This document shows, in pieces, positions 3,001 through 39,344 of a stretch of DNA of 40,361 nucleotides (positions are counted from its first letter, which is position 1; each line of letters opens with the position of its first letter). The stretch is from Minisyncoccota bacterium. Its GTDB lineage: Bacteria > Patescibacteriota > Minisyncoccia > Phycocordibacterales > Phycocordibacteraceae. The translations under genes and the position numbers were made by a program. Where the stretch lies: the NCBI GenBank assembly GCA_035627595.1, contig DASPLK010000004.1:1-40361 (forward strand). The letters are read 5' to 3'. The notes beneath the pieces are model-generated. The model had not been told where the DNA came from and did no database searches. It worked only from the letters and a program-made list of their open reading frames with translations.

Positions 3001-5820
3001 TGCGTTCGAGAAAACTACTGATCCCGTACCCACCTCGTCAGAGAGGATGCCAGCAAGCTCTGCTGAGGTGTCGACTTCCGTAGTAAGAAGCACCATCGGA
3101 TCGAGGTATGCAGGCGCGATTGCGGAACCCTGCCATACGCCGCTCGTGATGGTACCGAGCGTCGTGAGACTTGGAAGCGAAGTGATGCCTGTGTGCGTGG
3201 TAGTTGCGTGCCAATCTGAAAGCGAGAACTTTGCATTAAGCGCGTTCTGCAGATCAGTCTGATCGGAGAGCGTGCCGGTAATATCTCCCCACGCAACGCC
3301 CGTAACGAATCCAAAGGAACTGGTCGCTACATTCGTCCATGCGCTACCGTTCCAAGTCAAGAAATCGTTCACATTTGGCGTCATTGAAGCGACATCCGAA
3401 AGATCCTCGATCGAGTTGTTGGTCAGGTCATCTGCAGTGCGTGCGGTCTGCTGGGTCTCCCAGTAGTTTGCGGAGGTCGTTGAGAAGAAGTAGTCCTTGC
3501 TGTAGGTATCAAGAAGCGTTGAGACGCGTGCATCGGTGTAGTAAAGGTTCGTGCCTTCTGCAAGCGCATCAGTAGTAGTTGCAAACCAAGCAGAGAGCGA
3601 AAGCTTAGCGTCAAGCGCGTTCTGCAGGTCGGTCTGGTCGGAAAGCGTGCCGGTGATGTTGCCCCACTCTGCGCTCGTAATACCAAGAGATGAGGTCGCC
3701 ATAAGTGCGTACCCTCCTGTTCCATTGCCAACGAGAAGCTGTCCGAAGACTGGCGCCGTACCTGTGCCAGTACCGCCGTTTGAAACCGGAAGCACATCTT
3801 CTACATCGGTAGCAAGTGAGACGAGTGATGTAGCAATTGCACCTCCGGTTGCACGAAGGATGCCGTTAAGAGAACCAATCGAAAGCGATGGTGTCGTTAG
3901 GGCCCCTGCGGTTGATATCGTTGTCGTGCCCGTTGAACCAAACGCTGCGGAGTTCGACGAGAACGACGTAGCGGTCGCATTACCGAGCTGTAGATCTGAT
4001 GGAAGAGAAAGTGTAACGCCACCTGCGCCGTTGTCAGCTACAGATATCTGGTTTGCTGTACCCGTGACCCAAGTCGAAAGGTCTGTTGAAGTGGCAGCTC
4101 CCGAACTATCCGCAAAGAGCAACCTCGATGGTGTAATCCCTGAAAGACGGAAGATGCCGGACACTGAGAGGTTCGTCGAAGTTGCGTTCGTTGTGGTCGC
4201 ATTTGTAAGCGTTGCATTGGTAGCAGAAAGTGTCGTCACTACAGCATTCGTAATGGTTGCAAGCGTCGATGTGAAAGTATCAATCGTACCGGTTGTTGCA
4301 CGGAAGAGCGTTGCAAAAAGATTCGTTGAGGTTGCGTTTGTGGTGGTCGCATTAGTCGCAAGCAAGTTTGCAAATGTTGATGACGTTGCAAACAAGGTAT
4401 TTACACTAAGCGAATTGCCGGTTGCGGTAGCGAACTGGAGTGGACCTGCAAATGTAGAGGTCGCCGTCGTTGATGTCGCATTAAATGACGGTGCGCTGAT
4501 AGTAGAAGTTACGTTGAGCGTTGCGACATTAAATGTACCCACGGTGAGCTCGCCCGTTATGTTCGCGTCACCGTTAACTGTAATGCCGCCATTTACCGTC
4601 GTCGTACCAGAAGAGAATGAGCCGCCGATGGAGCCGTTGCCGCTAATTGTTATAGAGTCACCAGTGATATCACCGCCAATAGTTCCGCCTCCGCCGTCTA
4701 CATCGATGTCATCAATTCGGTCATAGACGTTAGCAAAGCGCTCATCAAGTGCGTAGAACGACAACCAGACTGGGCGCAGCAAGTACTCACCGAAGCCTGA
4801 GAGTGCGTATGTGAGGAACTCAGCACTAACACCATTCACGGTCGTGCGATTGTCAGTGGCGTTGGTAATGTAGCGCGTTATGTTCTGCGTGATGTTCTGA
4901 ATTGTCGTAGTGCCCTGAACAATCGTAGTCGTTGAATTCAAAGGTGCTGACGTTGTTGCACTTGAAATAGAAACTGGATCTGGAGTATCCACTACGTGCA
5001 CCTGCACGTTTGTGCGGGGAGCGAAGAATGCGGCAACTTTGCGCTCAGTGTCTGCAAAGAAGTTGTCGATGGTTGCGTAGGTAAAATATGCAATCGACTT
5101 TGCCACCTCTACCATTGGCGAAGAGCTATTTGAAGCTGCTGCAGAAAGTGCATTCATCTCTGAGATTGAGCCCTGCGCCTCACGCACGTCCGCAATAGAT
5201 TCTTCTTTCGATGTAAATACTCCTGTAGATGCAGAAACCACTATGAATGTAATAAGGAGCGCGGCAGTTGCGCGAGTGTATGTATGAACAGGATTGTATG
5301 TAAAACGCTGCGCAAAAACTTTACGTGTAACGGTAACGACAGGCTGCACCTCGCGGTATTCATTCTTTCGCTTCTCCGCAAGTTCCTCGTGAAGCTTTTT
5401 CTTCTCCTCCTCTACCTTAGATAGGTGCACCTGGAGGTCATCCGCCTTAATTACCCATGCCTTCCCGTTTCGGGTTGATGGAAGCTCTCCAGAACGGCAA
5501 AGAGAGCTGATGTATGCAGGAGAGTAGCCCGATGCCTTAGCGGCTTCGTAGGTGGAGAGAAGATTCTGTTCTCGGCGCTGAACCTCCCAATACTCATCTT
5601 TACGCTTGCGCGCAAGTTCTTCTGCCTGACGCTTCTTCTCGTCTTCAACTTTTGAAAGATATGCCTTGAGGTCTGATCGTTTGATCATCCATGCCTTCCC
5701 GTTTCGGGTTGATGGAAGCTCTCCAGAACGGCAAAGAGAGCTGATGTATGCAGGAGAGTAGCCCGATGCCTTAGCGGCTTCGTAGGTGGAGAGAAGATTC
5801 TGTGAAGGCTTCGAAGACAT
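1..5820 (-). CDS. Giant membrane-anchored surface protein, first 1,940 codons (C-terminus lies beyond the left edge). Order: two tandem excisionase/MerR-like HTH modules, charged coiled-coil segments, one TM helix, then Thr/Ala/Asn/Gly-rich phage-tail-fibre-like repeats.
   Basis: Absent from the ORF track because there is no stop in the window. My manual minus-strand translation from ATG 5820-5818 stays open for exactly 1,940 codons to base 1 (MSSKPSQNLLSTYEAAKASGYSPAYISSLCRSGELPSTRNGKAWMIKRSDLKAYL...). The hydrophobic segment ATAALLITFIVVSASTGVF is encoded at about 5215-5271. Downstream there are at least 7 copies of an (L/I)xEGxNLY(Y/W)TxAR motif, GDWTGTFDGxEGSYYLANSF modules, SNGGTG / NQGGTG motifs and an ANGQVLK motif, as seen in phage tail fibres. 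All other-frame ORFs in this region are short or are antisense mirrors. Confidence 0.8.
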   Translation of the reverse strand, partial: MSSKPSQNLLSTYEAAKASGYSPAYISSLCRSGELPSTRNGKAWMIKRSDLKAYLSKVEDEKKRQAEELARKRKDEYWEVQRREQNLLSTYEAAKASGYSPAYISSLCRSGELPSTRNGKAWVIKADDLQVHLSKVEEEKKKLHEELAEKRKNEYREVQPVVTVTRKVFAQRFTYNPVHTYTRATAALLITFIVVSASTGVFTSKEESIADVREAQGSISEMNALSAAASNSSSPMVEVAKSIAYFTYATIDNFFADTERKVAAFFAPRTNVQVHVVDTPDPVSISSATTSAPLNSTTTIVQGTTTIQNITQNITRYITNATDNRTTVNGVSAEFLTYALSGFGEYLLRPVWLSFYALDERFANVYDRIDDIDVDGGGGTIGGDITGDSITISGNGSIGGSFSSGTTTVNGGITVNGDANITGELTVGTFNVATLNVTSTISAPSFNATSTTATSTFAGPLQFATATGNSLSVNTLFATSSTFANLLATNATTTNATSTNLFATLFRATTGTIDTFTSTLATITNAVVTTLSATNATLTNATTTNATSTNLSVSGIFRLSGITPSRLLFADSSGAATSTDLSTWVTGTANQISVADNGAGGVTLSLPSDLQLGNATATSFSSNSAAFGSTGTTTISTAGALTTPSLSIGSLNGILRATGGAIATSLVSLATDVEDVLPVSNGGTGTGTAPVFGQLLVGNGTGGYALMATSSLGITSAEWGNITGTLSDQTDLQNALDAKLSLSAWFATTTDALAEGTNLYYTDARVSTLLDTYSKDYFFSTTSANYWETQQTARTADDLTNNSIEDLSDVASMTPNVNDFLTWNGSAWTNVATSSFGFVTGVAWGDITGTLSDQTDLQNALNAKFSLSDWHATTTHTGITSLPSLTTLGTITSGVWQGSAIAPAYLDPMVLLTTEVDTSAELAGILSDEVGTGSVVFSNAPTFTGVSNFADIITTNATSTNFFVSGQARFGTLDGLLRADAGVISVATPGVDYLADATGDWTGTFDGYEGSYYLANSFSTSSANSWLATRSTDDLAEGSNLYYTDARVLSYVDSLGKGYFFSTTSANTWLGTKSTDDIAEGANLYYTLNRFASALAGTTTDALLEGSTNLYYTDARARAALSSSAAGLSYNSATGVLSLSAGYTIPLAASTTEWATAYSWGNHATQNYFDLDLNDSDDIPEGGTNLFYSNSRVATYLDTVSKGYFFSTTSANYWDTQQTARTADDLTNNSIEDLMDVAAMTKSWGNLLSWNGSAWTNVATSSLGLTPTFTATYPLQYSSNVLSLAFGTTTANTWGPLQTFNSGILAQASSTIVGDFTITGTTHLEEVSIAGDIIPTADNVYSLGTPSRMWRDVYIGPGSLYINGQKVLEEDATTDIVVTADPTQNLKIKTTDGGNIELNANATGQLIFKSNLNITGGKSIVTSDLSTLPVPNGIAAGNITVATNTISATNLNGGISLAGNGTGGVYVTSGNFGVGTTSPLAKLSVAGNTYLGGTLTATGTVTFSSLGDGFVKSTGGVLGIAVPGVDYLDDTSGDWTGTFDGQEGSYYLANSFSTTSANYWETQQTARTADDLTNNSIEDLSDVASMTKSFGNLLSWSGSAWNNIATSTLGIAFADITGTVSQNQGGTGMTSYSPGDILYADNAGALTPLPKGANGQVLKLSGGLPSWGSDITTGGGGGEGAWATTTDSLAIYTTDTSDAVIIGSSATTTANSIFEVFGTSYFSNTIGIATTSPSPLHKLAVQGNALFSGNITSANITATGTVTFSGLGSGLVKATSGVLSLATAGADYVADVTGDWTGTFDGQEGSYYLANSFSTTSAAYWKSQTDFFSTTSTNAWLATKSTSNLAEGTNLYYTNARVLTYLDTFDKGYFFSTTSAAYWKEQNNFFSTTSTNAWLATKSTSDLAEGTNLYWTTARFDNRLSATTTLPNLTTLANLATVGT
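118..344 (-). repeat. Intragenic direct repeat: 118-170 and 292-344, 53 bp with 1 mismatch, offset 174 bp (58 codons, in frame).
   Basis: Direct comparison of agacgtgctcttggttgcgagccatgcgtt(a/g)gtggaagtagtcgagaagaagt at both positions. Confidence 0.85.
388..1224 (-). repeat. Intragenic direct repeat: 388-441 and 1171-1224, 54 bp identical, offset 783 bp (261 codons). It encodes GDWTGTFDGQEGSYYLAN. A diverged third copy lies near 2775-2830.
   Basis: gtttgcgaggtagtagcttccctcctgtccgtcgaaggtgccggtccagtcgcc was read at both sites. Confidence 0.85.
2042..3493 (-). repeat. Intragenic direct repeat module. Block 2042-2073 equals 3323-3354 (32 bp). Block 2124-2212 equals 3405-3493 (89 bp, 1 mismatch). 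Offset 1281 bp (427 codons). A more diverged copy starts at 1086 (offset 1038 bp).
   Basis: The same module appears in the ORF track as the + strand antisense peptide SIELLVRSSAVRAVC(W/C)VSQ, present three times (ORFs 965..1147, 1757..2185, 3272..3466). On the coding strand it reads ..YWETQQTARTADDLTNNSIEDL. Confidence 0.85.
5455..5803 (-). repeat. In-frame tandem duplication of the HTH module. The 115-bp blocks 5455-5569 and 5689-5803 are identical by eye, with period 234 bp (78 codons).
   Basis: Both blocks read ccatgccttcccgtttcgggttgatggaagctctccagaacggcaaagagagctgatgtatgcaggagagtagcccgatgccttagcggcttcgtaggtggagagaagattctgt. Each encodes QNLLSTYEAAKASGYSPAYISSLCRSGELPSTRNGKAW. Confidence 0.9.
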
Positions 5821-6341: not shown

Positions 6342-7334
6342 CTAGCGCTTCTCCTGAAGGGTTAGGAAGTCTGCTACAGATGCTGTGGCGGCTCTAGGCG
6401 TGTCACCAAGTACATCTGATGTCAACTGTATTACTCCTAAAGTAGCGCCGGCTATTTCGCCTCCTAGGGCATTTTGTATCTGTCCGCTTTCTGATCTTAT
6501 GCCCTGTGATGCTTTCAGCATTCCCTCCCCAATTGCTATTTGGGGCACAACAATCATACGCGCGAGCTCGTGTGCGGTGTCTATCCAAAGCGTAACTACT
6601 GGCATCTCCTCAAGCTTCAACCCAGGAATTCCCTTTGCTGCAACTGCGATCGTGGAATCACCAATCATGTACGCGCTTTGCACCGCAGTACTAGCTACAT
6701 ACTGAGTGCCATCCACCCATGCATAAAGGCCGCTTATATAGGCACCCATAGCCTTATGTTGAATATCTAAAATTCTACGCATGAGTACCTCTGAGACAGC
6801 AATGTAAGGGTCTGCTGCAATCCAGATAACGCGCGACATGCTCTCAAAGTGCTCATCGCTTACTTTCATTACTATTGCATGCTCTTTGTCAGGTAGATGG
6901 CTTTCCCTTGGCTCAAAATTAGCCAATAAAGGTCGCTCTTCTGCGTAAAGAGGCTGTTCAATGGGAACTAAGTTGATATAAGGGACGAAAAGGCCTTCCA
7001 GACCAGACGAGAATGAGAAATACGAGCTCGCACCACCACTAGCTGGCAAACTTTCGACGTCTGTATTTGCGGCGGCCACAGAAGCCATATGTGCGCTAGC
7101 GCGCTTAGGTATTTGAGCGATTTCTCCACGCACACCTTCAACTAAGCTAATAAGCCGATTTCCGGCATCGATTGAAGCGAGCTCTACAATTGCGGAGTGA
7201 GCAGTGAACATTGATCCAAAAAGTACTGATACCGCGACAAGGAAGGAAAAAGCATGGCCGCGAAATATATCTAAATTCGCATGTCCCGAGCTATAGGCAG
7301 GATACGTTTTGGAGCTAAGTGTTCCGGAGGTCAT
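6342..7334 (-). CDS. Hypothetical protein with an N-terminal signal-anchor; no family recognised.
   Basis: The track ORF 6342..7532 begins with TTG only 4 nt after a terminator T-tract. The first ATG is at 7334 (MTSGTLSSKTYPAYSSGHANLDIFRGHAFSFLVAVSVLFGSMFTAHS...), which gives about 330 aa with one hydrophobic helix. I recognise no conserved motif. Confidence 0.55.
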   Translation of the reverse strand: MTSGTLSSKTYPAYSSGHANLDIFRGHAFSFLVAVSVLFGSMFTAHSAIVELASIDAGNRLISLVEGVRGEIAQIPKRASAHMASVAAANTDVESLPASGGASSYFSFSSGLEGLFVPYINLVPIEQPLYAEERPLLANFEPRESHLPDKEHAIVMKVSDEHFESMSRVIWIAADPYIAVSEVLMRRILDIQHKAMGAYISGLYAWVDGTQYVASTAVQSAYMIGDSTIAVAAKGIPGLKLEEMPVVTLWIDTAHELARMIVVPQIAIGEGMLKASQGIRSESGQIQNALGGEIAGATLGVIQLTSDVLGDTPRAATASVADFLTLQEKR

Positions 7335-7535
7335 GCGTGTAATAGGGAGCAAAAGGGACTGTAGATTAATACTAGCCTGTGCGAGAGCATGAAGCCTGTG
7401 CAATTTGTGGATAGAGCAAATTAAAACCTGATTGCTCGCAGGACAACTAACATACAATTTGGTCTGAAGTAGGGGACACACAGCAAAGGATCCGTGCCTT
7501 CGTTGGAGAGGCTTACATCTTTCACAAACCAAAGT

Positions 7536-7601: not shown

Positions 7602-8501
7602 CTATTCAATTATTACCGTTCCTGCAAAGAACCGGATCATTGAAGACTCAACCCCTGCATTTCTTACATAAGCATCTGCAATACCTGAACCAATGACAGC
7701 AATAACTACAGCTAGTACGGCCACCGCAACGAACGCAGCTCGAAGCGAAAGACTCGACTTCCCTGCTACTGGACGGCGCGCATTTTTAGCCGCAGGAGCA
7801 ATTGCCCTTCTCTCCGAGCGCGGCGTTCCCCCAACTAGGCGTATCTCAGGGCTCGCAGGGCGCATTGACTCATAGGTACGGCGCATGGGCACGTCTTCCT
7901 CTATCTCATCGGTGAAAGGCACAGGGTCATACTCAGGAGCTGGTTCCTCATCTTTAAGTACCGACTTTTCTTCTTCTACGCGATGCAAGATAACGGGCGA
8001 TACCTCATAGGGATCCTCTATTTGTGTCTCTGCTCTAGAAATTTCCTCTTGAGACGAGCTTCCAGACGAGGCCGACTCCTGCTGTCGGGTTGCAAACCAC
8101 TCGCGCCATGCGGACTGCATATCCTCAACTGAGCTAGTTACAGGCTCCACAATTGGCTCATCGGCAGCCTTAGAACTCAATTCCTGCCTACCATCAAGCA
8201 AATTTATACTCCGCCTTTCCAGCACAGGAACCGTAGTAGCATCCTCAACCTCATACTTAGGCGGCTCCCATGTAGGTATGGGGTCTGGGCTAGAAACAGC
8301 CTTATCTGCCTTTACATCCTCAGAACCAAACCTATGTGCCCTAATAGAAGTCTCAAGCACGTACCAGCTCCGACCCACGAGGGTGGCTTCAACCCTACCC
8401 TCCCTGCAAAGCTGACCAATATAATCCTTCGCATATCCAGTAATCTCGGCCGCGCGCTTTGACGAGATATAAATCTTGTCACCAATAGTAAGCTCATTCA
8501 T
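7602..8501 (-). CDS. Tail-anchored HTH protein: N-terminal excisionase/MerR-like HTH, long acidic low-complexity linker, C-terminal TM helix.
   Basis: 299 aa. The N-terminus ISSKRAAEITGYAKDYIGQLCREGRVEATLVGRSWYVLETSIRAH aligns with the giant protein's STYEAAKASGYSPAYISSLCRSGELPSTRNGKAWMIKRSDLKAY (AA..GY..YI..LCR.G......G..W). The TM segment is LRAAFVAVAVLAVVIAVIGSGI, near residues 250-275. Confidence 0.8.
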   Translation of the reverse strand: MNELTIGDKIYISSKRAAEITGYAKDYIGQLCREGRVEATLVGRSWYVLETSIRAHRFGSEDVKADKAVSSPDPIPTWEPPKYEVEDATTVPVLERRSINLLDGRQELSSKAADEPIVEPVTSSVEDMQSAWREWFATRQQESASSGSSSQEEISRAETQIEDPYEVSPVILHRVEEEKSVLKDEEPAPEYDPVPFTDEIEEDVPMRRTYESMRPASPEIRLVGGTPRSERRAIAPAAKNARRPVAGKSSLSLRAAFVAVAVLAVVIAVIGSGIADAYVRNAGVESSMIRFFAGTVIIE

Positions 8502-28793: not shown

Positions 28794-30158
28794 TCAGCGT
28801 ACGACAAGTGCTGCACTACAGGCAAGCAAATTCCCAAACAGGCATAAAAGCCAGGTGGGTGTGTTTGAGGAGACCAATGCCGCCCCCACTGCAGCTTGTT
28901 GAGCAGCTGCAGTGGGGGCTTCTATGACCTCTTCATATGACTGCGTTGCGACAGGTGCTAGTAAATCGACCATTCTCATCTCTTGTATACCGCCTGTGCG
29001 GACTATAGGTTTCTGAGCCGCTATAGGCGTCGCGTTCATTTCCTCTACAATGGCCGGTTCAGCGACCGCTACCGTCTCCCCTTTCGGGAACAAAAGCGAT
29101 ATCGGCGTACCCGTTGCGAGTCCTGTCACCTCTGTAGCGAACACGACCGAACTTCCCGGCCAGAGCGCGGTATCGTCTGGGAACACGAAAGCACCCTCTC
29201 CTGCTGCTAGTTGCCACTGTGACAGATCAACGAGACGTTGCCCAATATTGGTAACTCGTATTCCGGCTGTTTCTGTCGCCACATCTATCGCCGCGTTCTC
29301 CACGACGACTTTGAGCGTGCGCAACACCTCTGCCTCTTTATGCGTAGCGCGAACGATGAGCGCGTATTCTCCGGGAGCACGGTACGCGTGTTCGACCGCT
29401 TTGCCTTCCGCGCGTGTGCCGTCCCCAAAGCTCCACGTGACCTTAGCGTCCTCAATTGCACGCTCGTTTTTGCTGTATATGACAGCCGTATAAGGAGTAG
29501 GTACTTGCGCGAGCACAATGCGATCGTTACCCGCATCTATTGAAATGGTACGTCGAGGGCTCTGTACGTGCGAACTCGTCGATGGAGCCGTACCCCCTAC
29601 GGTAACGACCGGCGTTGTTGTGCCGGTCTCATCCTCTTCTTCGTCATCTGCTTCATCTTCGTTTCCACCAATTATGTTTACTGCTCGCGGTGTGGGCGTA
29701 CCTGTCGACCACAAAGAGCCGTTCCGCTGTGGTGTCGCTTTCGTACTGTTATTGCCGCCGATGTTCTTCCAGTCTGTACCCCCAACGACCGTGTCTATTG
29801 CGGCCCCGGACGAGTCCGTAAGTGTAAGCGTGCTGCCATCGTTACTTAATGCGCCCGTGTAGACCTTGTCCGCCTGTATATCCGGTACGGTGGCATCGTC
29901 CGTGCGTTCAAGTAGATAGTACCCGCCGGCGGCGATAGAGCCCGTGAGCGTAATGTTAGGCGCCGTGCCCGAAGATGTAATGGTCCAGCCAGAAAGCGAA
30001 ACTTCCTCCGTTCCGTCATTGTAGAGTTCTATCCATTCATCGGTATCGCTTACCGACGTGCCCATCCACGCTATCTCGCTGATGACGACCCCTGCGTGCG
30101 CTGCGCTTGGCGCAATTAGTGTCGACAGCACGAGTAGCGAGATGAGTCGGTTAGACAT
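28794..30158 (-). CDS. Secreted, C-terminally membrane-anchored protein: signal peptide, lamin-tail domain (LTD), acidic linker, PKD domain, second LTD-like domain, C-terminal TM helix.
   Basis: Start at MSNRLISLLVLSTLIAPSAAHA (ATG 30158). LTD pattern VVISEIAWMGTSVSDTDEWIELYNDGTEEVSLSGWTI. PKD pattern VTWSFGDGTRAEGKAVEHAYRAPGEYALIVRA. C-terminal helix TWLLCLFGNLLACSAALVV. The sequence ATGTCTAA gives an 8-nt overlap with the upstream stop. Confidence 0.8.
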   Translation of the reverse strand: MSNRLISLLVLSTLIAPSAAHAGVVISEIAWMGTSVSDTDEWIELYNDGTEEVSLSGWTITSSGTAPNITLTGSIAAGGYYLLERTDDATVPDIQADKVYTGALSNDGSTLTLTDSSGAAIDTVVGGTDWKNIGGNNSTKATPQRNGSLWSTGTPTPRAVNIIGGNEDEADDEEEDETGTTTPVVTVGGTAPSTSSHVQSPRRTISIDAGNDRIVLAQVPTPYTAVIYSKNERAIEDAKVTWSFGDGTRAEGKAVEHAYRAPGEYALIVRATHKEAEVLRTLKVVVENAAIDVATETAGIRVTNIGQRLVDLSQWQLAAGEGAFVFPDDTALWPGSSVVFATEVTGLATGTPISLLFPKGETVAVAEPAIVEEMNATPIAAQKPIVRTGGIQEMRMVDLLAPVATQSYEEVIEAPTAAAQQAAVGAALVSSNTPTWLLCLFGNLLACSAALVVR

Positions 30159-31866
30159 TGTCCTTGAAGATGGCGCGCAGCGTATCCTCGGGAACTTCAA
30201 ATGGTTGTGGTCCCTCTTGCCGCGGCGCTGACTCTCTGCGCTCTTGTCTTTGCTCAGAGCGCGGAAGCTCCTTATTTCGCGGATGCGCTGGAAGCTCTTT
30301 GGCACGCGGACGTTCCGGTAGCTCTGTCCCCTGGATGACCTCTTTGAGTGCAGTCTTAATGCCTGACTGATGCTTTTTTTCCTCTCCCTGCTTCTCCCTT
30401 TTCGCGCCTTCAGACATGCTGCGAAGTATTGCCTTCAAATCATCGGCACTTTTTGGAGTTGGTTCTGGCCGCTTAGGCGCGGGTTCTGCGCGCGGCGGTA
30501 CATCGCGCCTAGGCGCAGGCTTCTTCTGTCCGTCCCAACGCTTCTTCTCTGCAGGCGGCTCAGGCGGAATGTCCGCGGTCGCGGCCAGCTCTGAGAATAT
30601 AAGCCCCTCAACGGTCTCGCGCGGCGTCGCGAACTGGCGTCGTGAAGACTCTAGGACCTCGTTCCGGAACGTGCGTGCAGGCGCTTCGATAGGCGGTATG
30701 GTGACTGCGGAGAACGGGCGGGAGCCAACGCCATCGATCATAAGGGAGAGATAGATCTGCGTCTTGCCGAGGTTCACAATATCCTCCTTCATAAATTCCG
30801 GGGAGAAAACTGTCTCGAGCACCTCTGCATCGAACGGACCGACGCGGAACGAGACCGTGCTGCCGACGTTGCCGAACACAGCAGCACGCACCTCCTCCTC
30901 CATCTGCTCCACGTACTGGTGCGCGATGATCAGATTTAGCTTGTACTTGCGGGCCTCAGAAAGGATCTCAGCGAACGTCTCGTTCGCGAAGTTCTGGAAC
31001 TCGTCCACATAGAAATAGAAGTTTGGAAGCTTTGCGATATCGTGCGCCGAAAGGTCGGCACGGCTCATCGCCGCAAGGAAGATGCGCGTCGTAATCATAG
31101 AACCGAGGAGCTTCATGTTCGTATCGCCAACGAGACCCTTGGAGAGATTGATCAGAATAATCTTCTTCTGGTCCATCGCTTCGCGTATATCGAAGGAAGA
31201 CTTCGGCTGGCCGATAATATTGCGGATGAGGGGGTTTGAGGTGAACTGGCCGATCTTATTCTGGATTGCAGGGGTCGCTTCCTGCGTGTAGCGATCGGTA
31301 TACGTCGCGAACTCCTTTACCCAGAAGTCCTTTACCAAGGGGTCCTTCACATTCTCAACCACCTTCTTGCGGTACGCCTTGTCGGTATACATGCGGTTCA
31401 CGCCCATCAGTGTTGCGTCCGGATACTCAAGAAGCGCGAGGAGTGTGTTGGAGAGGATGTACTCCATGCGGGCGCTCCACGCATCCACCCAGATCTTTTT
31501 GAAGGTCGCCATGAGGCCCGAAACCACGAGGTGTCGCTTGTCGTACCCGACGTCCTCCATGACGTTGAACGCGACCGGGTTCTCCATATCAAACGGCGCG
31601 AAATAGACAACGTCCTGGATGCGGTTCTCCGGTATGTACTCAAGGAGTGCGTCCACCGCACTTCCGTGTGGGTCGATGAATGCAAGACCTTCCCCGTTCC
31701 GGATGTCCTGGATGGCCATGTTCTCGAGGAGGGTCGACTTACCCATACCCGTCTTCCCGATGACGTACATGTGGCGGTCGCGGTCGCGACTTTTAATGCC
31801 GAACGGCACGCGCTTACCGCGGGAATCGGTTGCTGCAAAGTACGTGATCCGATCCGGATTATCCAT
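30151..31866 (-). CDS. Soluble TraD/VirD4/TrwB-family (type IV coupling-protein-like) P-loop NTPase with a charged, Pro-rich, presumably disordered C-terminal tail of about 170 aa.
   Basis: 571 aa. Walker A VIGKTGMGKST and Walker B FYFYVDEFQNF, plus IIAHQY. No N-terminal TM helices. The tail contains KELP repeats (ELPERPRAKELPAHPRNKELPRSEQ). Confidence 0.7.
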   Translation of the reverse strand: MDNPDRITYFAATDSRGKRVPFGIKSRDRDRHMYVIGKTGMGKSTLLENMAIQDIRNGEGLAFIDPHGSAVDALLEYIPENRIQDVVYFAPFDMENPVAFNVMEDVGYDKRHLVVSGLMATFKKIWVDAWSARMEYILSNTLLALLEYPDATLMGVNRMYTDKAYRKKVVENVKDPLVKDFWVKEFATYTDRYTQEATPAIQNKIGQFTSNPLIRNIIGQPKSSFDIREAMDQKKIILINLSKGLVGDTNMKLLGSMITTRIFLAAMSRADLSAHDIAKLPNFYFYVDEFQNFANETFAEILSEARKYKLNLIIAHQYVEQMEEEVRAAVFGNVGSTVSFRVGPFDAEVLETVFSPEFMKEDIVNLGKTQIYLSLMIDGVGSRPFSAVTIPPIEAPARTFRNEVLESSRRQFATPRETVEGLIFSELAATADIPPEPPAEKKRWDGQKKPAPRRDVPPRAEPAPKRPEPTPKSADDLKAILRSMSEGAKREKQGEEKKHQSGIKTALKEVIQGTELPERPRAKELPAHPRNKELPRSEQRQERRESAPRQEGPQPFEVPEDTLRAIFKDNV

Positions 31867-31872
31867 GGCGGT

Positions 31873-31878
31873 ATTATA
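31873..31878 (-). promoter_or_regulatory. Consensus -10 TATAAT exactly 6 nt upstream of ATG 31866.
   Basis: The coding strand reads AGGAGGG-TATAAT-ACCGCC-ATG. Confidence 0.4.
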
Positions 31879-31892
31879 CCCTCCTAATGAGG

Positions 31893-32531
31893 CTACGGCG
31901 CGGTCGCTTCAAAAAAAAGGTCGAATGCAAATTCTTGCGGAAAGCGCTCGGCAAGTTTGCCGAGGCGGCCAGCACCGATGACTCGTACATCGGTAAATCG
32001 AGCTTCGAGAAGTCCGGTAAGTTCGCGTACGGTGAAATGATTAATGTGCGTTGGGTCCATAAGTGGCGTGTGCTGTTTGCTCGCCATGAGATAACGAGCG
32101 CGATTACGTAATGAAAAAGCGTTCGGGACCGTTCCCAGAACGGTGCCTCCTGGCTTGAGGACCTCTGCTATCTTGCGGAAGACTTCATCCGGGTAGTAGA
32201 GATGCTCGACGACCTCTGCGGCGACCACATGATCGAAGGACCGCGGTTCGATGTTCCAGGGCCCATTTAAATCAACTTGGATTGTCTCTATACCAAGCTT
32301 CTTAGCAATTTCGAGCGCTCCTGCGTCTATATCAAGCCCGCAAACGCTCCCTGCCTTCCCCACGTATTCTGCTGTAAGACCTCCATCCCTGCAGCCTATG
32401 TCGAGCACTTTGCTGCCATCGCGCACCCGTGACCTAATGAAGCCACCTCTTTCCTCCTGCATGAGCACGAACCCTCTGCCTCGAACTTTCTCATGATGAC
32501 TGGTGTAGATGGATTCAAGTGGAGTGTTCAT
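31893..32531 (-). CDS. Class I SAM-dependent methyltransferase.
   Basis: 212 aa. Motif I VLDIGCRDGG, then VVAAEVVEHL and LKPGGTVLGTVPN. Confidence 0.85.
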   Translation of the reverse strand: MNTPLESIYTSHHEKVRGRGFVLMQEERGGFIRSRVRDGSKVLDIGCRDGGLTAEYVGKAGSVCGLDIDAGALEIAKKLGIETIQVDLNGPWNIEPRSFDHVVAAEVVEHLYYPDEVFRKIAEVLKPGGTVLGTVPNAFSLRNRARYLMASKQHTPLMDPTHINHFTVRELTGLLEARFTDVRVIGAGRLGKLAERFPQEFAFDLFFEATAP

Positions 32532-32533
32532 GA

Positions 32534-33619
32534 CTATTGATACTGTATAAACATCGGTCTCGGCGAGAGCTTTAGGAGATCGCTTGGCGTCAGCAGGCGC
32601 TCTGAGGGCGGCTTAAGGTCGTTCTTGTAGAAGATCTTGAACCCGGTGAACTGAACCGGCTCTGGGACGATGAACTGCTGATACGTGTTGAGCTTTTTTG
32701 CGGGAGGTCCCCAGCCATCCATGTCCATGACAATCTGCACTTCCGGCAGTGGCTTTATGTCCTGATAGTTGGTGACCATGCGCTGGGTGAATCTATGGAC
32801 AACAATGACCTTTGGGGGCAAGTTGTGCTCCCGCACGAACTTCGCGAGGTAGTCGGCAGCATAGTTAATATGCCGTGCATCGTAGGACCCAATCACATGA
32901 CCCGGCGGATCTTCGCCAATCATATGGAACTCAGGATCGAGCCCGAGATGTACGTTCGGCATCGCCCAGTATTTATCCAAAAGCGGCAATTCCTTTTCCA
33001 GGGTCGAGAAGCCGATTTGAATATCAAGAATCACGATTGCATCTATCTTCTTTGCAATCTCAACTGCTTTATCAATCTCGGAGTCCGGCATGCGAAGCAT
33101 GTAGTTCCCTTCTCGTCCGGGCAGCTCTTGCGCAGTGATGGCGATGTAGTTAATCGCTGGGACGGTGGGTGTTGAGGGATCGGCCGCCTCCCACTTCTGC
33201 TGTTCGCCCTTGAGCATCTGCAGCATTTGCGCTTCAGGGTACTCGCCAAGGACACCCATTTTAGTCGAGTAGAAGTTGCCGTAGTACGCGATGATGCGCT
33301 TGAACGGAAGAATGGCGCCCGGCAATGGATATGCGGTCTTTACCGGCCACAGACTCGGAGATGTAGAAGAGGTCGATGTTGCAAGGTTCGCCATCTCAAG
33401 CATCTTCCGATCATAGAGTGCCGAATCGAACTTGGGCGGCTCTTCTTTCTTTGCAAAAAGACCGGTAGAGGTTGCAACGGGCGCACCACGCTCGTAGGAT
33501 GTCGCAAACACGTGCGGAATCACTACGAGTCCCAGTGCAAGCAGGAGGAAGAGCGTCGCGAATCCGATAATGATATCCTTCGAAACCTTTGGCTCGCCCT
33601 TATGCTTCTGGCGCTTCAT
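32534..33619 (-). CDS. Conserved-looking hypothetical protein with an N-terminal membrane anchor.
   Basis: 361 aa. The TM segment IIIGFATLFLLLALGLVVIPHVF is followed by a soluble domain (YYGNFYSTKMGVLGEY, HLGLDPEFHM, VIVVHRFT). I cannot name a family. Confidence 0.65.
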   Translation of the reverse strand: MKRQKHKGEPKVSKDIIIGFATLFLLLALGLVVIPHVFATSYERGAPVATSTGLFAKKEEPPKFDSALYDRKMLEMANLATSTSSTSPSLWPVKTAYPLPGAILPFKRIIAYYGNFYSTKMGVLGEYPEAQMLQMLKGEQQKWEAADPSTPTVPAINYIAITAQELPGREGNYMLRMPDSEIDKAVEIAKKIDAIVILDIQIGFSTLEKELPLLDKYWAMPNVHLGLDPEFHMIGEDPPGHVIGSYDARHINYAADYLAKFVREHNLPPKVIVVHRFTQRMVTNYQDIKPLPEVQIVMDMDGWGPPAKKLNTYQQFIVPEPVQFTGFKIFYKNDLKPPSERLLTPSDLLKLSPRPMFIQYQ

Positions 33620-33809
33620 ATGGGGGCGGTGCCACAGGCTCCACGCGAGACGATTCTGCGGAACGCTTCTTACGGAGCGTTACACCGATCACGACCACTC
33701 CTGCAGAGAGCACGGGAATAATGACCATGATCCATGAGTACGGGAGTCCGAGGAACGGAGTGATCGCGAGAAGTATACCGAGGGCGATGAGCAGGCTTTC
33801 ACGTGTCAT
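33600..33809 (-). CDS. Small two-helix membrane protein.
   Basis: 69 aa with an ATG start. Two hydrophobic segments (LLIALGILLAITPFLGL, IMVIIPVLSAGVVVIGV) are followed by a basic tail. There is a 20-nt overlap with the next gene. Confidence 0.5.
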   Translation of the reverse strand: MTRESLLIALGILLAITPFLGLPYSWIMVIIPVLSAGVVVIGVTLRKKRSAESSRVEPVAPPPYEAPEA

Positions 33810-38843: not shown

Positions 38844-39344
38844 CTAGTCCACTGTAACGACAACACTATCCTCCCAGTCTGTAATTGGCTCATCCGCGGG
38901 TCCAGGATGCCAGAGAGTGACAATAATTGTGTATGCGCCTGGCTCCTTGTACGTGTGCGTTTTGACGCTCTGGGAGCAACTTTCTCCCTCTGATTCCGCC
39001 TCAAACAGCGGTTCTGTTGTTCCGTCTCCCCACTCTACGGAGAGGCCATTGCCGCCGGGTCCAAACCAGCCGACCGAGATGACGCAGGAATCGATCTTCT
39101 CAAGAACGGGCGCAGGACCCGTTATAGTCACGGTTCTTCCGTTTACCTCAGCATCCAATCCGCGCGAGCCAGAATAGATAGTTCCCTGCGCACTCTGTCC
39201 CACAACCTCCGCTTCCTGCGAAGGCGCCTCTACTACAGGCGCTATGACCTCCGGGCGCGGGGTCTGCGTATATATAAACGCCAGCGTTATCAAAAGCACG
39301 GTGCCGGCAAGTGAAGCAGCAACAAGACGTGGATGCTCTTTCAT
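38844..39344 (-). CDS. Membrane-anchored or secreted PKD-domain protein.
   Basis: 166 aa. N-terminal helix LVAASLAGTVLLITLAFIY, then PKD-like VEWGDGTTEP...HTYKEPGAYTIIVTLW. Confidence 0.7.
   Translation of the reverse strand: MKEHPRLVAASLAGTVLLITLAFIYTQTPRPEVIAPVVEAPSQEAEVVGQSAQGTIYSGSRGLDAEVNGRTVTITGPAPVLEKIDSCVISVGWFGPGGNGLSVEWGDGTTEPLFEAESEGESCSQSVKTHTYKEPGAYTIIVTLWHPGPADEPITDWEDSVVVTVD

Follow-up and report, generated by a model that had tools for sequence, protein, structure and literature searches.

A pair of adjacent genes in a Minisyncoccota bacterium (assembly GCA_035627595.1, contig DASPLK010000004.1, positions 1 to 40,361; this whole stretch of 40,361 nucleotides is called the window in the following) encodes a soluble P-loop ATPase of the TrwB/VirD4 type and a membrane-anchored surface protein with lamin-tail domains (LTDs); together they may form a transcription unit, conserved in Parcubacteria (class Paceibacteria, Patescibacteria/Candidate Phyla Radiation, CPR), for the capture and import of DNA, an explanation that we favor but hold tentatively. 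The ATPase gene (571 amino acids; 30151..31866) was delimited by its open reading frame, Pfam and Foldseek matches and homologue searches, and the surface protein gene (454 amino acids; 28794..30158) by Pfam, hydrophobicity and orthologues; both genes, and all their parts and control elements described below, are on the reverse strand. The ATPase would act as the motor, a cytoplasmic and probably hexameric nucleic-acid translocase of the type IV coupling protein (T4CP) kind; the partner would act as the receptor for extracellular DNA, a Sec-exported surface protein held by a C-terminal transmembrane (TM) anchor.

Pfam, searches of PDB sequences and fold comparison all place the ATPase nearest to the type IV coupling proteins, and in these searches it clusters with no characterised non-translocase family; the TraD/VirD4-like identity proposed by an earlier, sequence-only reading of this DNA is thereby upheld. 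The Pfam matches are to TrwB_AAD_bind (8.4e-9, residues 25-324), TraG-D_C (8.7e-6), T4SS-DNA_transf and, more weakly, DUF87 (3.5e-5); the best NCBIfam model is the VirD4-like conjugal CD1115 family (1.3e-12), and the NCBIfam VirB4 models match at the P-loop only (E 0.0016-0.055). Against PDB sequences, TrwB was the sole significant match, both for the single sequence (E 2.1e-3) and for a 48-sequence profile (E 1.3e-3); this match is limited to the P-loop region, the next match has an E-value of 0.16 or weaker, and neither FtsK nor HerA was matched in the profile search. The AlphaFold2 model of the ATPase, a monomer with a mean pLDDT of 71.6 and a core of mostly moderate to high confidence, ranked Cagbeta (1.5e-11), DotL and TrwB first in Foldseek, followed by HerA, VirB4 and DndH-C; the margin of the T4CPs over HerA and VirB4 is modest (TM-scores 0.5-0.6). 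Likeness to HerA and FtsK is confined to weak matches of the DUF87 central domain and the P-loop, and neither the HerA barrel nor the FtsK combination of four TM helices, linker and gamma domain was found. A role as FtsK replacement was set aside, since the ATPase has no FtsK-like feature and ftsK is annotated in Saccharibacteria according to the literature; it is kept as a low-probability thought.

The two coupling-protein-type motifs named in the sequence-only reading, Walker A GKTGMGKST (residues 37-45; 31732..31758) and Walker B VDEFQNF (residues 287-293; 30988..31008), are embedded in a core that is nearly invariant in 48 homologues; G37, K38, T39, G40, G42, K43, S44 and T45 of the former and V287, D288, E289, F290, Q291, N292 and F293 of the latter do not vary at all. 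An all-alpha insertion within the nucleotide-binding domain (residues ~108-232; 31171..31545), seen as AlphaFold2 helices H108-H232 inside the Pfam TrwB_AAD_bind match, is the equivalent of the all-alpha domain of T4CPs. The protein has no hydrophobic segment and thus, as had been claimed, no N-terminal TM domain (maximum 19-residue Kyte-Doolittle mean 0.95). The charged, proline-rich tail, previously put at about 170 amino acids, measures 176 (residues 396-571; 30154..30681); by composition it is rich in P, E, R and K, it is predicted to be disordered, with pLDDT < 50 over most of residues 443-557, and it contains two islands that are conserved among the 48 homologues. The internal island comprises D476, L477, I480 and L481; the other is the motif PFEVPEDTLRAIFK at the extreme C-terminus (residues 555-568; 30163..30204), with a predicted helix at 560-568, invariant E557 and L563, and nearly invariant P559, E560 and F567. 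The tail varies in length among homologues and the terminal PFEVPEDxLRxIFK helix is kept, with distant homologues ending in a similar E..L+.I(L/F); judging from this conservation, the motif is a candidate docking peptide.

The ATPase thus shares with T4CPs (TrwB of R388, VirD4, TraD, Cagbeta, DotL) a P-loop domain of the FtsK/HerA superfamily with an inserted all-alpha domain, and a disordered C-terminal tail that ends in a conserved peptide. Unlike T4CPs, it lacks the N-terminal TM domain, has no relaxase, VirB4 or channel genes nearby, and is chromosomal and conserved like a housekeeping gene; in its relatives, a membrane protein resembling the VirB4 N-terminal domain (NTD) is partnered with it or fused to it in place of a TM domain of its own. 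The sequence-only reading had seen no VirB-type channel, relaxase or pilus genes near the pair, and Pfam searches of the ~30 open reading frames in the 40-kb window also found none; neither a relaxase nor a type IV secretion system (T4SS) containing VirB4 was present in the window or in the flanks of 160 related loci. Close homologues of the ATPase number more than 8000, with 63-91% identity in the top 120, whose source names, where given, are mostly Paceibacterota, Parcubacteria or Patescibacteria; 5,595 cluster representatives of a library clustered at 50% identity match at E <=1e-30. Its plasmid relatives (29-39% identity) occur mostly on non-mobilizable plasmids, in an uninformative context of transposases and hypothetical proteins.

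The surface protein combines the features that the sequence-only reading had ascribed to it, a signal peptide, two LTDs, a PKD domain and a C-terminal anchor, as Pfam matches and hydrophobicity confirm. The signal peptide (residues 1-22, ending in ...SAAHA before G; 30093..30158) lies in the first of two hydrophobic segments (residues 5-27 and 434-454), and its N-terminal hydrophobic region is conserved in orthologues. It is followed by an N-terminal, or tip, LTD (residues ~23-150; 29709..30092; Pfam residues 18-124), an acidic linker rich in Thr and Pro, the PKD domain (residues ~209-286; 29301..29534; PKD_4 209-273, PKD 236-286), a second LTD (residues ~291-375; 29034..29288) that was located by the second Pfam stretch and phmmer/HMM mapping and is constant in nearly all orthologues, and finally a conserved, membrane-proximal stalk with the C-terminal TM anchor (residues 376-454, TM helix 434-454; 28797..29033), recognized by hydrophobicity and C-terminal homology. 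The two LTD (PF00932) stretches match with E 1.6e-24 and 86.8 bits (cut-off 34.3), and PKD_4 with 6e-10 and 39.5 bits (cut-off 27). The signal peptide and the C-terminal TM helix predict an extracytoplasmic, membrane-tethered protein. Pfam and NCBIfam gave LTD and PKD matches only, with no helix-hairpin-helix (HhH) domain (PF12836/TIGR00426) in the window protein; a nuclease domain was not found in it either, and its match to the NCBIfam ExeM model is weak.

The PKD domain, second LTD, stalk and C-terminal TM helix form a module that is common to the orthologues, and its C-terminal part is homologous in orthologues with LTD tips and in those with HhH tips; it reads YEEVIEAPTAAAQQAAVGAAL...TPTWLLCLFG... 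in the window and ...SPWTLGFLGV..LAG.AFIFL in many orthologues. The anchor itself follows the motif (F/L)(R/K/S)SPWT(L/Y)GFLGV..LAG.AFI(F/L)L without a basic tail (window 28797-28870, reverse strand; orthologues in related loci L008-L080), and this sorting-signal-like anchor matched no NCBIfam CTERM model. The tip domain varies: among 42 orthologues it is a ComEA-type HhH domain (PF12836) in ~23, an LTD in ~11, and in 6 a different domain, Ig-like or unassigned; some orthologues consist of HhH plus anchor or LTD plus anchor alone. The orthologue HhH domains match the ComEA models TIGR01259 and TIGR00426, in one locus (L059) with 63.8 bits against a cut-off of 53.1. Judged by the shared module, the partner is one orthologous gene with an interchangeable tip domain. 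On a rough neighbor-joining tree of the ATPase, the basal S-type lineages and those linked to DUF8128 (see below) carry LTD tips, and HhH tips dominate in one derived clade where they are interleaved with LTD and other tips; this distribution suggests that the LTD tip is probably the older state. A similar alternation is known from secreted DNases, which carry an LTD or a duplicate HhH as alternative accessory domains that are “possibly analogous in function” (PMC4486849); deletion of the LTD lowered the nuclease activity of ExeM in vitro (PMC6085458).

The stop codon of the ATPase (TAA, 30153-30151) and the start codon of the partner (ATG at 30158) share the 8-nt overlap ATGTCTAA (30151..30158), as the sequence-only reading had stated. 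An overlap of -8 nt recurs in 9-10 orthologous loci, and in 41 of 43 loci the distance from the ATPase stop to the partner start is between -8 and +24 nt. The sequence-only reading had regarded this overlap as a sign of translational coupling; however, most junctions in the co-directional gene array around the pair fall between -8 and +9 nt, and since short gaps and overlaps are the norm here, the overlap cannot be taken to indicate special coupling. Few Shine-Dalgarno motifs were seen at any of the genes checked. The start at 30158 is supported by the conserved 22-residue signal peptide, the Pfam LTD match from residue 18 and the recurring -8 overlap, which together favor it over one public gene call (P0391, 423 amino acids) that begins the partner at M32 and would drop the signal peptide and truncate the LTD.

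The two genes appear to have a promoter of their own. A TATAAT -10 box (31873..31878) lies 6 nt before the ATPase ATG, as noted from the sequence before, and comparison across species bears out both this observation and the claim that the ATPase heads a transcription unit: in 76 of 79 species loci, the ATPase ATG is preceded by a TATA[AC]T whose end is 5-10 nt away, compared to 0-2 of 23-65 loci at each of six neighboring genes. A Shine-Dalgarno-like motif precedes the ATPase in only 5 of these 79 loci; in the window, AGGAGG is located upstream of TATAAT (31885-31880). From this spacing, transcription would be expected to start at the ATG or a few nucleotides before it, a leaderless geometry. 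In a generic sigma-70 consensus scan, the ATPase start had no -35/-10 pair (one site in the region, four expected by chance); the phylogenetic footprint is the stronger evidence. Because the -10 box is conserved across species in this way, the ATPase heads a transcription unit despite the close upstream genes on the same strand.

The adjacency of the two genes was surveyed in 80 species-representative genomes with 73 informative loci. A homologue of the partner is located directly 3' of the ATPase in 42-43 of the 73, and the partner domains occur nowhere else in the 80 loci; in the reverse direction, three of three distant LTD homologues (35-40% identity, on long contigs) were found directly 3' of the ATPase. 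Conservation of the neighborhood, on which the sequence-only reading had made its interpretation depend, also survives rearrangement of both flanks: the pair is kept between opposite-strand genes in L119, and between a DUF4015 gene on one side and an opposite-strand Na/Ca-exchanger gene on the other in L111. In other Parcubacteria orders, four of six look-ups of DUF8128 (L164, L165, L170, L171) gave the gene order LeuRS, sigma70_r4/HARE-HTH protein, DUF8128, ATPase, LTD-PKD-LTD protein and GT4 glycosyltransferase; in the remaining two (L168, L169), DUF8128 is present and the ATPase and LTD genes are both gone from the locus, which suggests that these two genes move together. The L165 locus also contains a GIY-YIG gene inserted between DUF8128 and the ATPase (L165:9193-9456).

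DUF8128 may supply the membrane part that the window ATPase lacks. In 25 metagenome loci, recovered by a scan seeded with distant family members, a protein of ~430 amino acids is encoded directly upstream of the ATPase; it belongs to DUF8128 (PF26449), and many long-form ATPases, which represent fusions, contain a homologue of it in their N-terminal ~400 residues. The AlphaFold2 model of DUF8128 (pLDDT 82.9) shows a helical TM hairpin at the N-terminus together with an alpha/beta domain, and all 13 of 13 significant Foldseek matches in the PDB are to TrwK/VirB4 of R388 (best 1.4e-6, ~410 aligned columns); in this predicted fold, the match corresponds to the VirB4 N-terminal domain. A DUF8128 profile had no match among PDB sequences, and a literature search on DUF8128 found no papers. 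With its TM hairpin, its TrwK/VirB4-NTD-matching domain and its N-terminal fusion to many long-form ATPases, DUF8128 of the sister lineages resembles VirB3-VirB4, and on the strength of the models the wider family looks like a split or fused protein that joins a VirB3/VirB4-NTD-like membrane module to a T4CP-like motor. In sequence and fold, however, the ATPase half is nearer to T4CPs than to the VirB4 C-terminal domain, and the window ATPase has no N-terminal domain. Neither the window nor any of the 80 close loci contains DUF8128, which may be encoded elsewhere in the source genome. The notion of a minimal cytoplasmic motor without a membrane part, proposed in the sequence-only reading, has become doubtful, since DUF8128 precedes the ATPase, or is joined to it in one protein, in sister lineages.

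The DUF8128 loci have further features of their own. Immediately upstream of DUF8128, and usually following LeuRS, is a gene for a protein of ~340 amino acids with Sigma70_r4 and HARE-HTH domains (L116:2188-3249, L164:6918-7943, L165:6922-7947, and 16 metagenome loci, for example L127:2065-3201), giving a conserved order of sigma-like protein, DUF8128 and, where still adjacent, ATPase; the Sigma70_r4/HARE-HTH protein occurs neither in the window nor in the 80 close loci. The ATPases of the DUF8128-linked lineages (L164:9200-10972, L165:9460-11253, L170:7228-9003, L171:7224-9098) carry a zinc ribbon (zf_Tbcl_2, CxxC...C..H) in the disordered tail and end in LKPGDTIKF, not in PFEVPED..LR.IFK.

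If the pair serves DNA import, the tip domain would capture extracellular DNA; the ATPase would dock at the membrane via DUF8128, provided that it is present in the genome, and/or via the conserved C-terminal peptide, and would then power the movement of DNA across the membrane. The ATPase could act alongside ComEC, in the role that ComFA has in Firmicutes, or in an import route of its own, for which the archaeal Ced system offers a parallel; the imported DNA would feed nucleotide scavenging and/or transformation. ComEA and ComFA, acting with ComEC, provide a parallel for the proposed division of labor between surface receptor and cytoplasmic ATPase. Like ComEA, the partner is extracytoplasmic and membrane-anchored, and many of its orthologues have the ComEA-type HhH domain above the TIGR00426 cut-off; unlike ComEA, the window protein has an LTD in the place of the HhH, a signal peptide combined with a C-terminal anchor, and an additional PKD domain and LTD. 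The ComEA protein of Bacillus is anchored N-terminally. ComFA is a DEAD-box helicase, whereas the window ATPase is of the T4CP type, and no comEC gene is adjacent to it in the window. The archaeal Ced/Ted systems, composed of the VirB4/HerA-like CedB and small membrane proteins, are similar in concept, as a T4SS-family ATPase is used for DNA import without a full T4SS; yet the window ATPase has only a weak P-loop match to the NCBIfam CedD model (3.1e-5) with no homology detectable beyond the P-loop, and the membrane components differ. Secreted DNases (ExeM; DNaseI-family) share with the partner the presence of LTD or HhH accessory domains on extracellular DNA-acting proteins (PMC4486849), and ExeM also has the succession of signal peptide, LTD and C-terminal hydrophobic anchor (PMC6085458); the partner is without their nuclease domain.

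Several observations weigh against DNA import. The partner ends at the membrane without a cytoplasmic segment, and hence no direct contact with the ATPase is possible; channel genes such as ComEC or VirB6 are not encoded near the pair. The mature ectodomain has a net charge of -29 and a pI of 4.3, with -12 in the tip LTD alone, and the HhH domains of the orthologues are mildly acidic as well; such acidity is typical of S-layer or surface glycoproteins and unusual in proteins that bind DNA non-specifically. The surface DNA receptor proposed in the sequence-only reading is supported in one part, by the ComEA-type HhH tips of the orthologues, and called into question in another, by the strongly acidic ectodomain of the window protein. 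The exchange of LTD for HhH could mark a change of ligand rather than functional equivalence, and the molecular function of bacterial LTDs is described as unresolved (PMC6085458). The linkage of the two genes also has its limits. At this position about 41% of the close relatives have no partner, their ATPase being followed at once by epimerase and GT4 genes; in the distant T clade (48-58% identity) genes for PGK, MnmA and similar proteins are found downstream of the ATPase. In nearly all loci of the S and G clades, including the DUF8128 lineages, an epimerase/GT4 cluster comes after the ATPase whether the LTD gene is present or not; the linkage of the ATPase to the glycan cluster is at least as persistent as its linkage to the partner.

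Some of these observations also speak for a second explanation, which we regard as somewhat doubtful but deserving of serious attention: the pair could belong to an envelope operon in which the LTD-PKD-LTD protein, an acidic and probably glycosylated protein of the surface-layer or adhesin type, works together with the downstream epimerase, GT4, flippase and O-antigen-ligase-like genes, and DNA is not a substrate. The ATPase would then serve surface assembly or export, for example by energizing the placement of a surface structure, or it would be co-transcribed by inherited synteny alone. The low pI of the ectodomain, the acidic Thr/Pro-rich linker and the membrane-proximal stalk fit this proposal, as do the persistence of the epimerase/GT4 cluster and the extension of the array in the window into Wzx- and Wzy_C-like genes; moreover, the partner evolves fast (24-50% identity, compared to 62-75% for the ATPase) and its tip is swapped in an adhesin-like manner. 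However, the tip found most often, an HhH domain of the ComEA type with a score above the curated ComEA cut-off, is hard to fit to a purely structural or glycan-binding protein; the nearest relatives of the ATPase all move nucleic acids or T4SS substrates; a partner with a Sec signal peptide needs no special exporter; and the ATPase of the distant T clade keeps DUF8128 with no glycan genes nearby.

The ATPase could also be a coupling protein at a distance, the T4CP of a Patescibacteria-type T4SS (VirB4, VirB3, VirB6, VirB8, VirB2-like pilins) that is encoded elsewhere, typically near oriC, so that its neighbor in the window is unrelated to its function; we consider this quite unlikely. T4CP genes are often located away from virB4, and monoderm-type T4SS are widespread in Patescibacteria (PMC12102498); in fold and sequence, T4CPs are indeed nearest to the ATPase, and its disordered tail with the conserved terminal peptide resembles, by analogy, the docking tails of TraD-type proteins. 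In F-plasmid TraD-type proteins, such tails dock the substrate or the relaxosome. Yet the ATPase lacks the N-terminal TM domain of canonical T4CPs, and a remote T4SS would leave both the conserved promoter-plus-partner unit and the dedicated, VirB4-NTD-like DUF8128 unexplained. A genomic survey also argues against such a role: among 5,713 VirD4-like genes in 2,918 Patescibacteria genomes, only 148 were near virB4 (PMC12102498), and in Southlakia the VirD4-like copy is dispensable, as is comEC, in contrast to the essential T4SS genes (PMC12102498, PMC12857230). By analogy, the dispensability of the Southlakia T4CP homologue would agree with a function in DNA import. A role as defense or mobile-element ATPase, as a mad8-like component of MADS or a HerA-like component, appears highly improbable and was rejected on context and conservation. 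It would account for a PADLOC mad8 match (2.2e-14) and weak HerA matches, for the SAM-methyltransferase gene directly upstream of the ATPase, and for the plasmid relatives mentioned above; the ATPase gene is, however, near-universal and highly conserved in a housekeeping syntenic block (MurC, RsmI, ..., ATPase), the methyltransferase is a class I enzyme of small-molecule type that adjoins the ATPase in this window only, and no nuclease, NurA or other defense partner was found in the window.

The pair is part of a long, mostly co-directional array of housekeeping and envelope genes (~30 open reading frames, annotated by Pfam) that includes MurD, MurC, RsmI, an epimerase, several GT4s, an aminotransferase, MurB, SecA, Obg and GatB, and runs on into genes for a Wzx-like flippase and a Wzy_C/TPR protein (O-antigen-ligase-like). 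The methyltransferase gene (31893-32531, reverse strand) ends 26 nt upstream of the ATPase and separates it from w32534; as the 80 close loci all lack it next to the ATPase, it appears to be a recent insertion, with the conserved -10 box still located between methyltransferase and ATPase. The w32534 gene (32534-33619, reverse strand; 361 amino acids) encodes an N-terminally anchored protein with a TM helix and an unknown domain, without Pfam or NCBIfam match; comparison with DUF8128 ruled out that it is a member of that family. Next to it, a small protein with two TM helices (~70-85 amino acids, M..S.ILI.LGIL.V..PF.G.P..W...; 33600-33809, reverse strand) is always found 3' of rsmI and has no family match; in many relatives its gene is directly upstream of the ATPase promoter (examples of this protein are L106:821-1084, L115:4246-4449 and L118:845-1069), and the small open reading frames upstream of the ATPase in L111 and L119 are not homologous to it and probably spurious. 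In several relatives (L163, L111) the upstream neighbors of the ATPase are putative glycoside hydrolases of the DUF4015 type. On the downstream side, the epimerase occurs as a fusion of ~500 amino acids with an extra C-terminal domain of ~200 amino acids (...VLVFTTTFHP..G.AE...) in L005:7956-9464, L012:4716-6227, L018:7642-9135 and L047:2247-3743, and a HigB/HTH toxin-antitoxin pair with a GIY-YIG gene is placed among GT4 genes in L163:14419-15391. Elsewhere in the window, a reading frame of 166 amino acids (38844-39344, reverse strand) with a weak PKD match (E 2.9e-4) may encode another small surface protein, and four reading frames of 179-396 amino acids (2436-2975, 3551-4726, 6342-7532, 7602-8501) have no Pfam match.

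The window ATPase belongs almost certainly to the family that Quinonero-Coronel et al. counted as “T4CP homologues to VirD4” (PMC12102498). Orphan VirD4-like genes in Patescibacteria, without assigned function, are thus already known from this 2025 report, and the sequence-only reading, which called the module undescribed, holds only in part: the unit with a ComEA-family/LTD surface protein, the swap of tip domains, the leaderless-type promoter and the VirB4-NTD-like DUF8128 as partner or fusion appear to be new in the light of the literature consulted, the ComEA/LTD linkage, DUF8128 association and promoter not being reported in the passages of that study that were searched.

The organisms in question, CPR/Patescibacteria, are unable to synthesize nucleotides and are believed to depend on nucleic acids that they scavenge. 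The locus ties together two loose ends, the VirD4-like genes that are not linked to a T4SS (PMC12102498) and the apparent lack of ComEA in most CPR genomes; ComEA is annotated in 31% of them, and Méheust et al. proposed an alternative DNA-binding mechanism (PMC6744442). It does so by linking an orphan ATPase to a domain-shuffled relative of ComEA and, in sister lineages, to a membrane subunit that resembles the VirB4 N-terminus. A more far-reaching proposal, which we judge unlikely and put forward for discussion, is that Parcubacteria own a T4SS-derived DNA-import machine consisting of DUF8128 as a split VirB3/VirB4-NTD-like subunit, the T4CP-like motor and the receptor with LTD or ComEA-HhH tip, expressed from a leaderless promoter and acting independently or upstream of ComEC. 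If it exists, this machine would correspond in bacteria to the Ced system of archaea, and it would be the “alternative DNA-binding mechanism” of the approximately two-thirds of CPR genomes in which ComEA is not annotated. Should the pair not serve DNA import at all, the module would still be a conserved envelope-associated machine; if it does, it would represent a new way of acquiring DNA across a very large share of bacterial diversity, and would show the re-use of conjugation ATPases.

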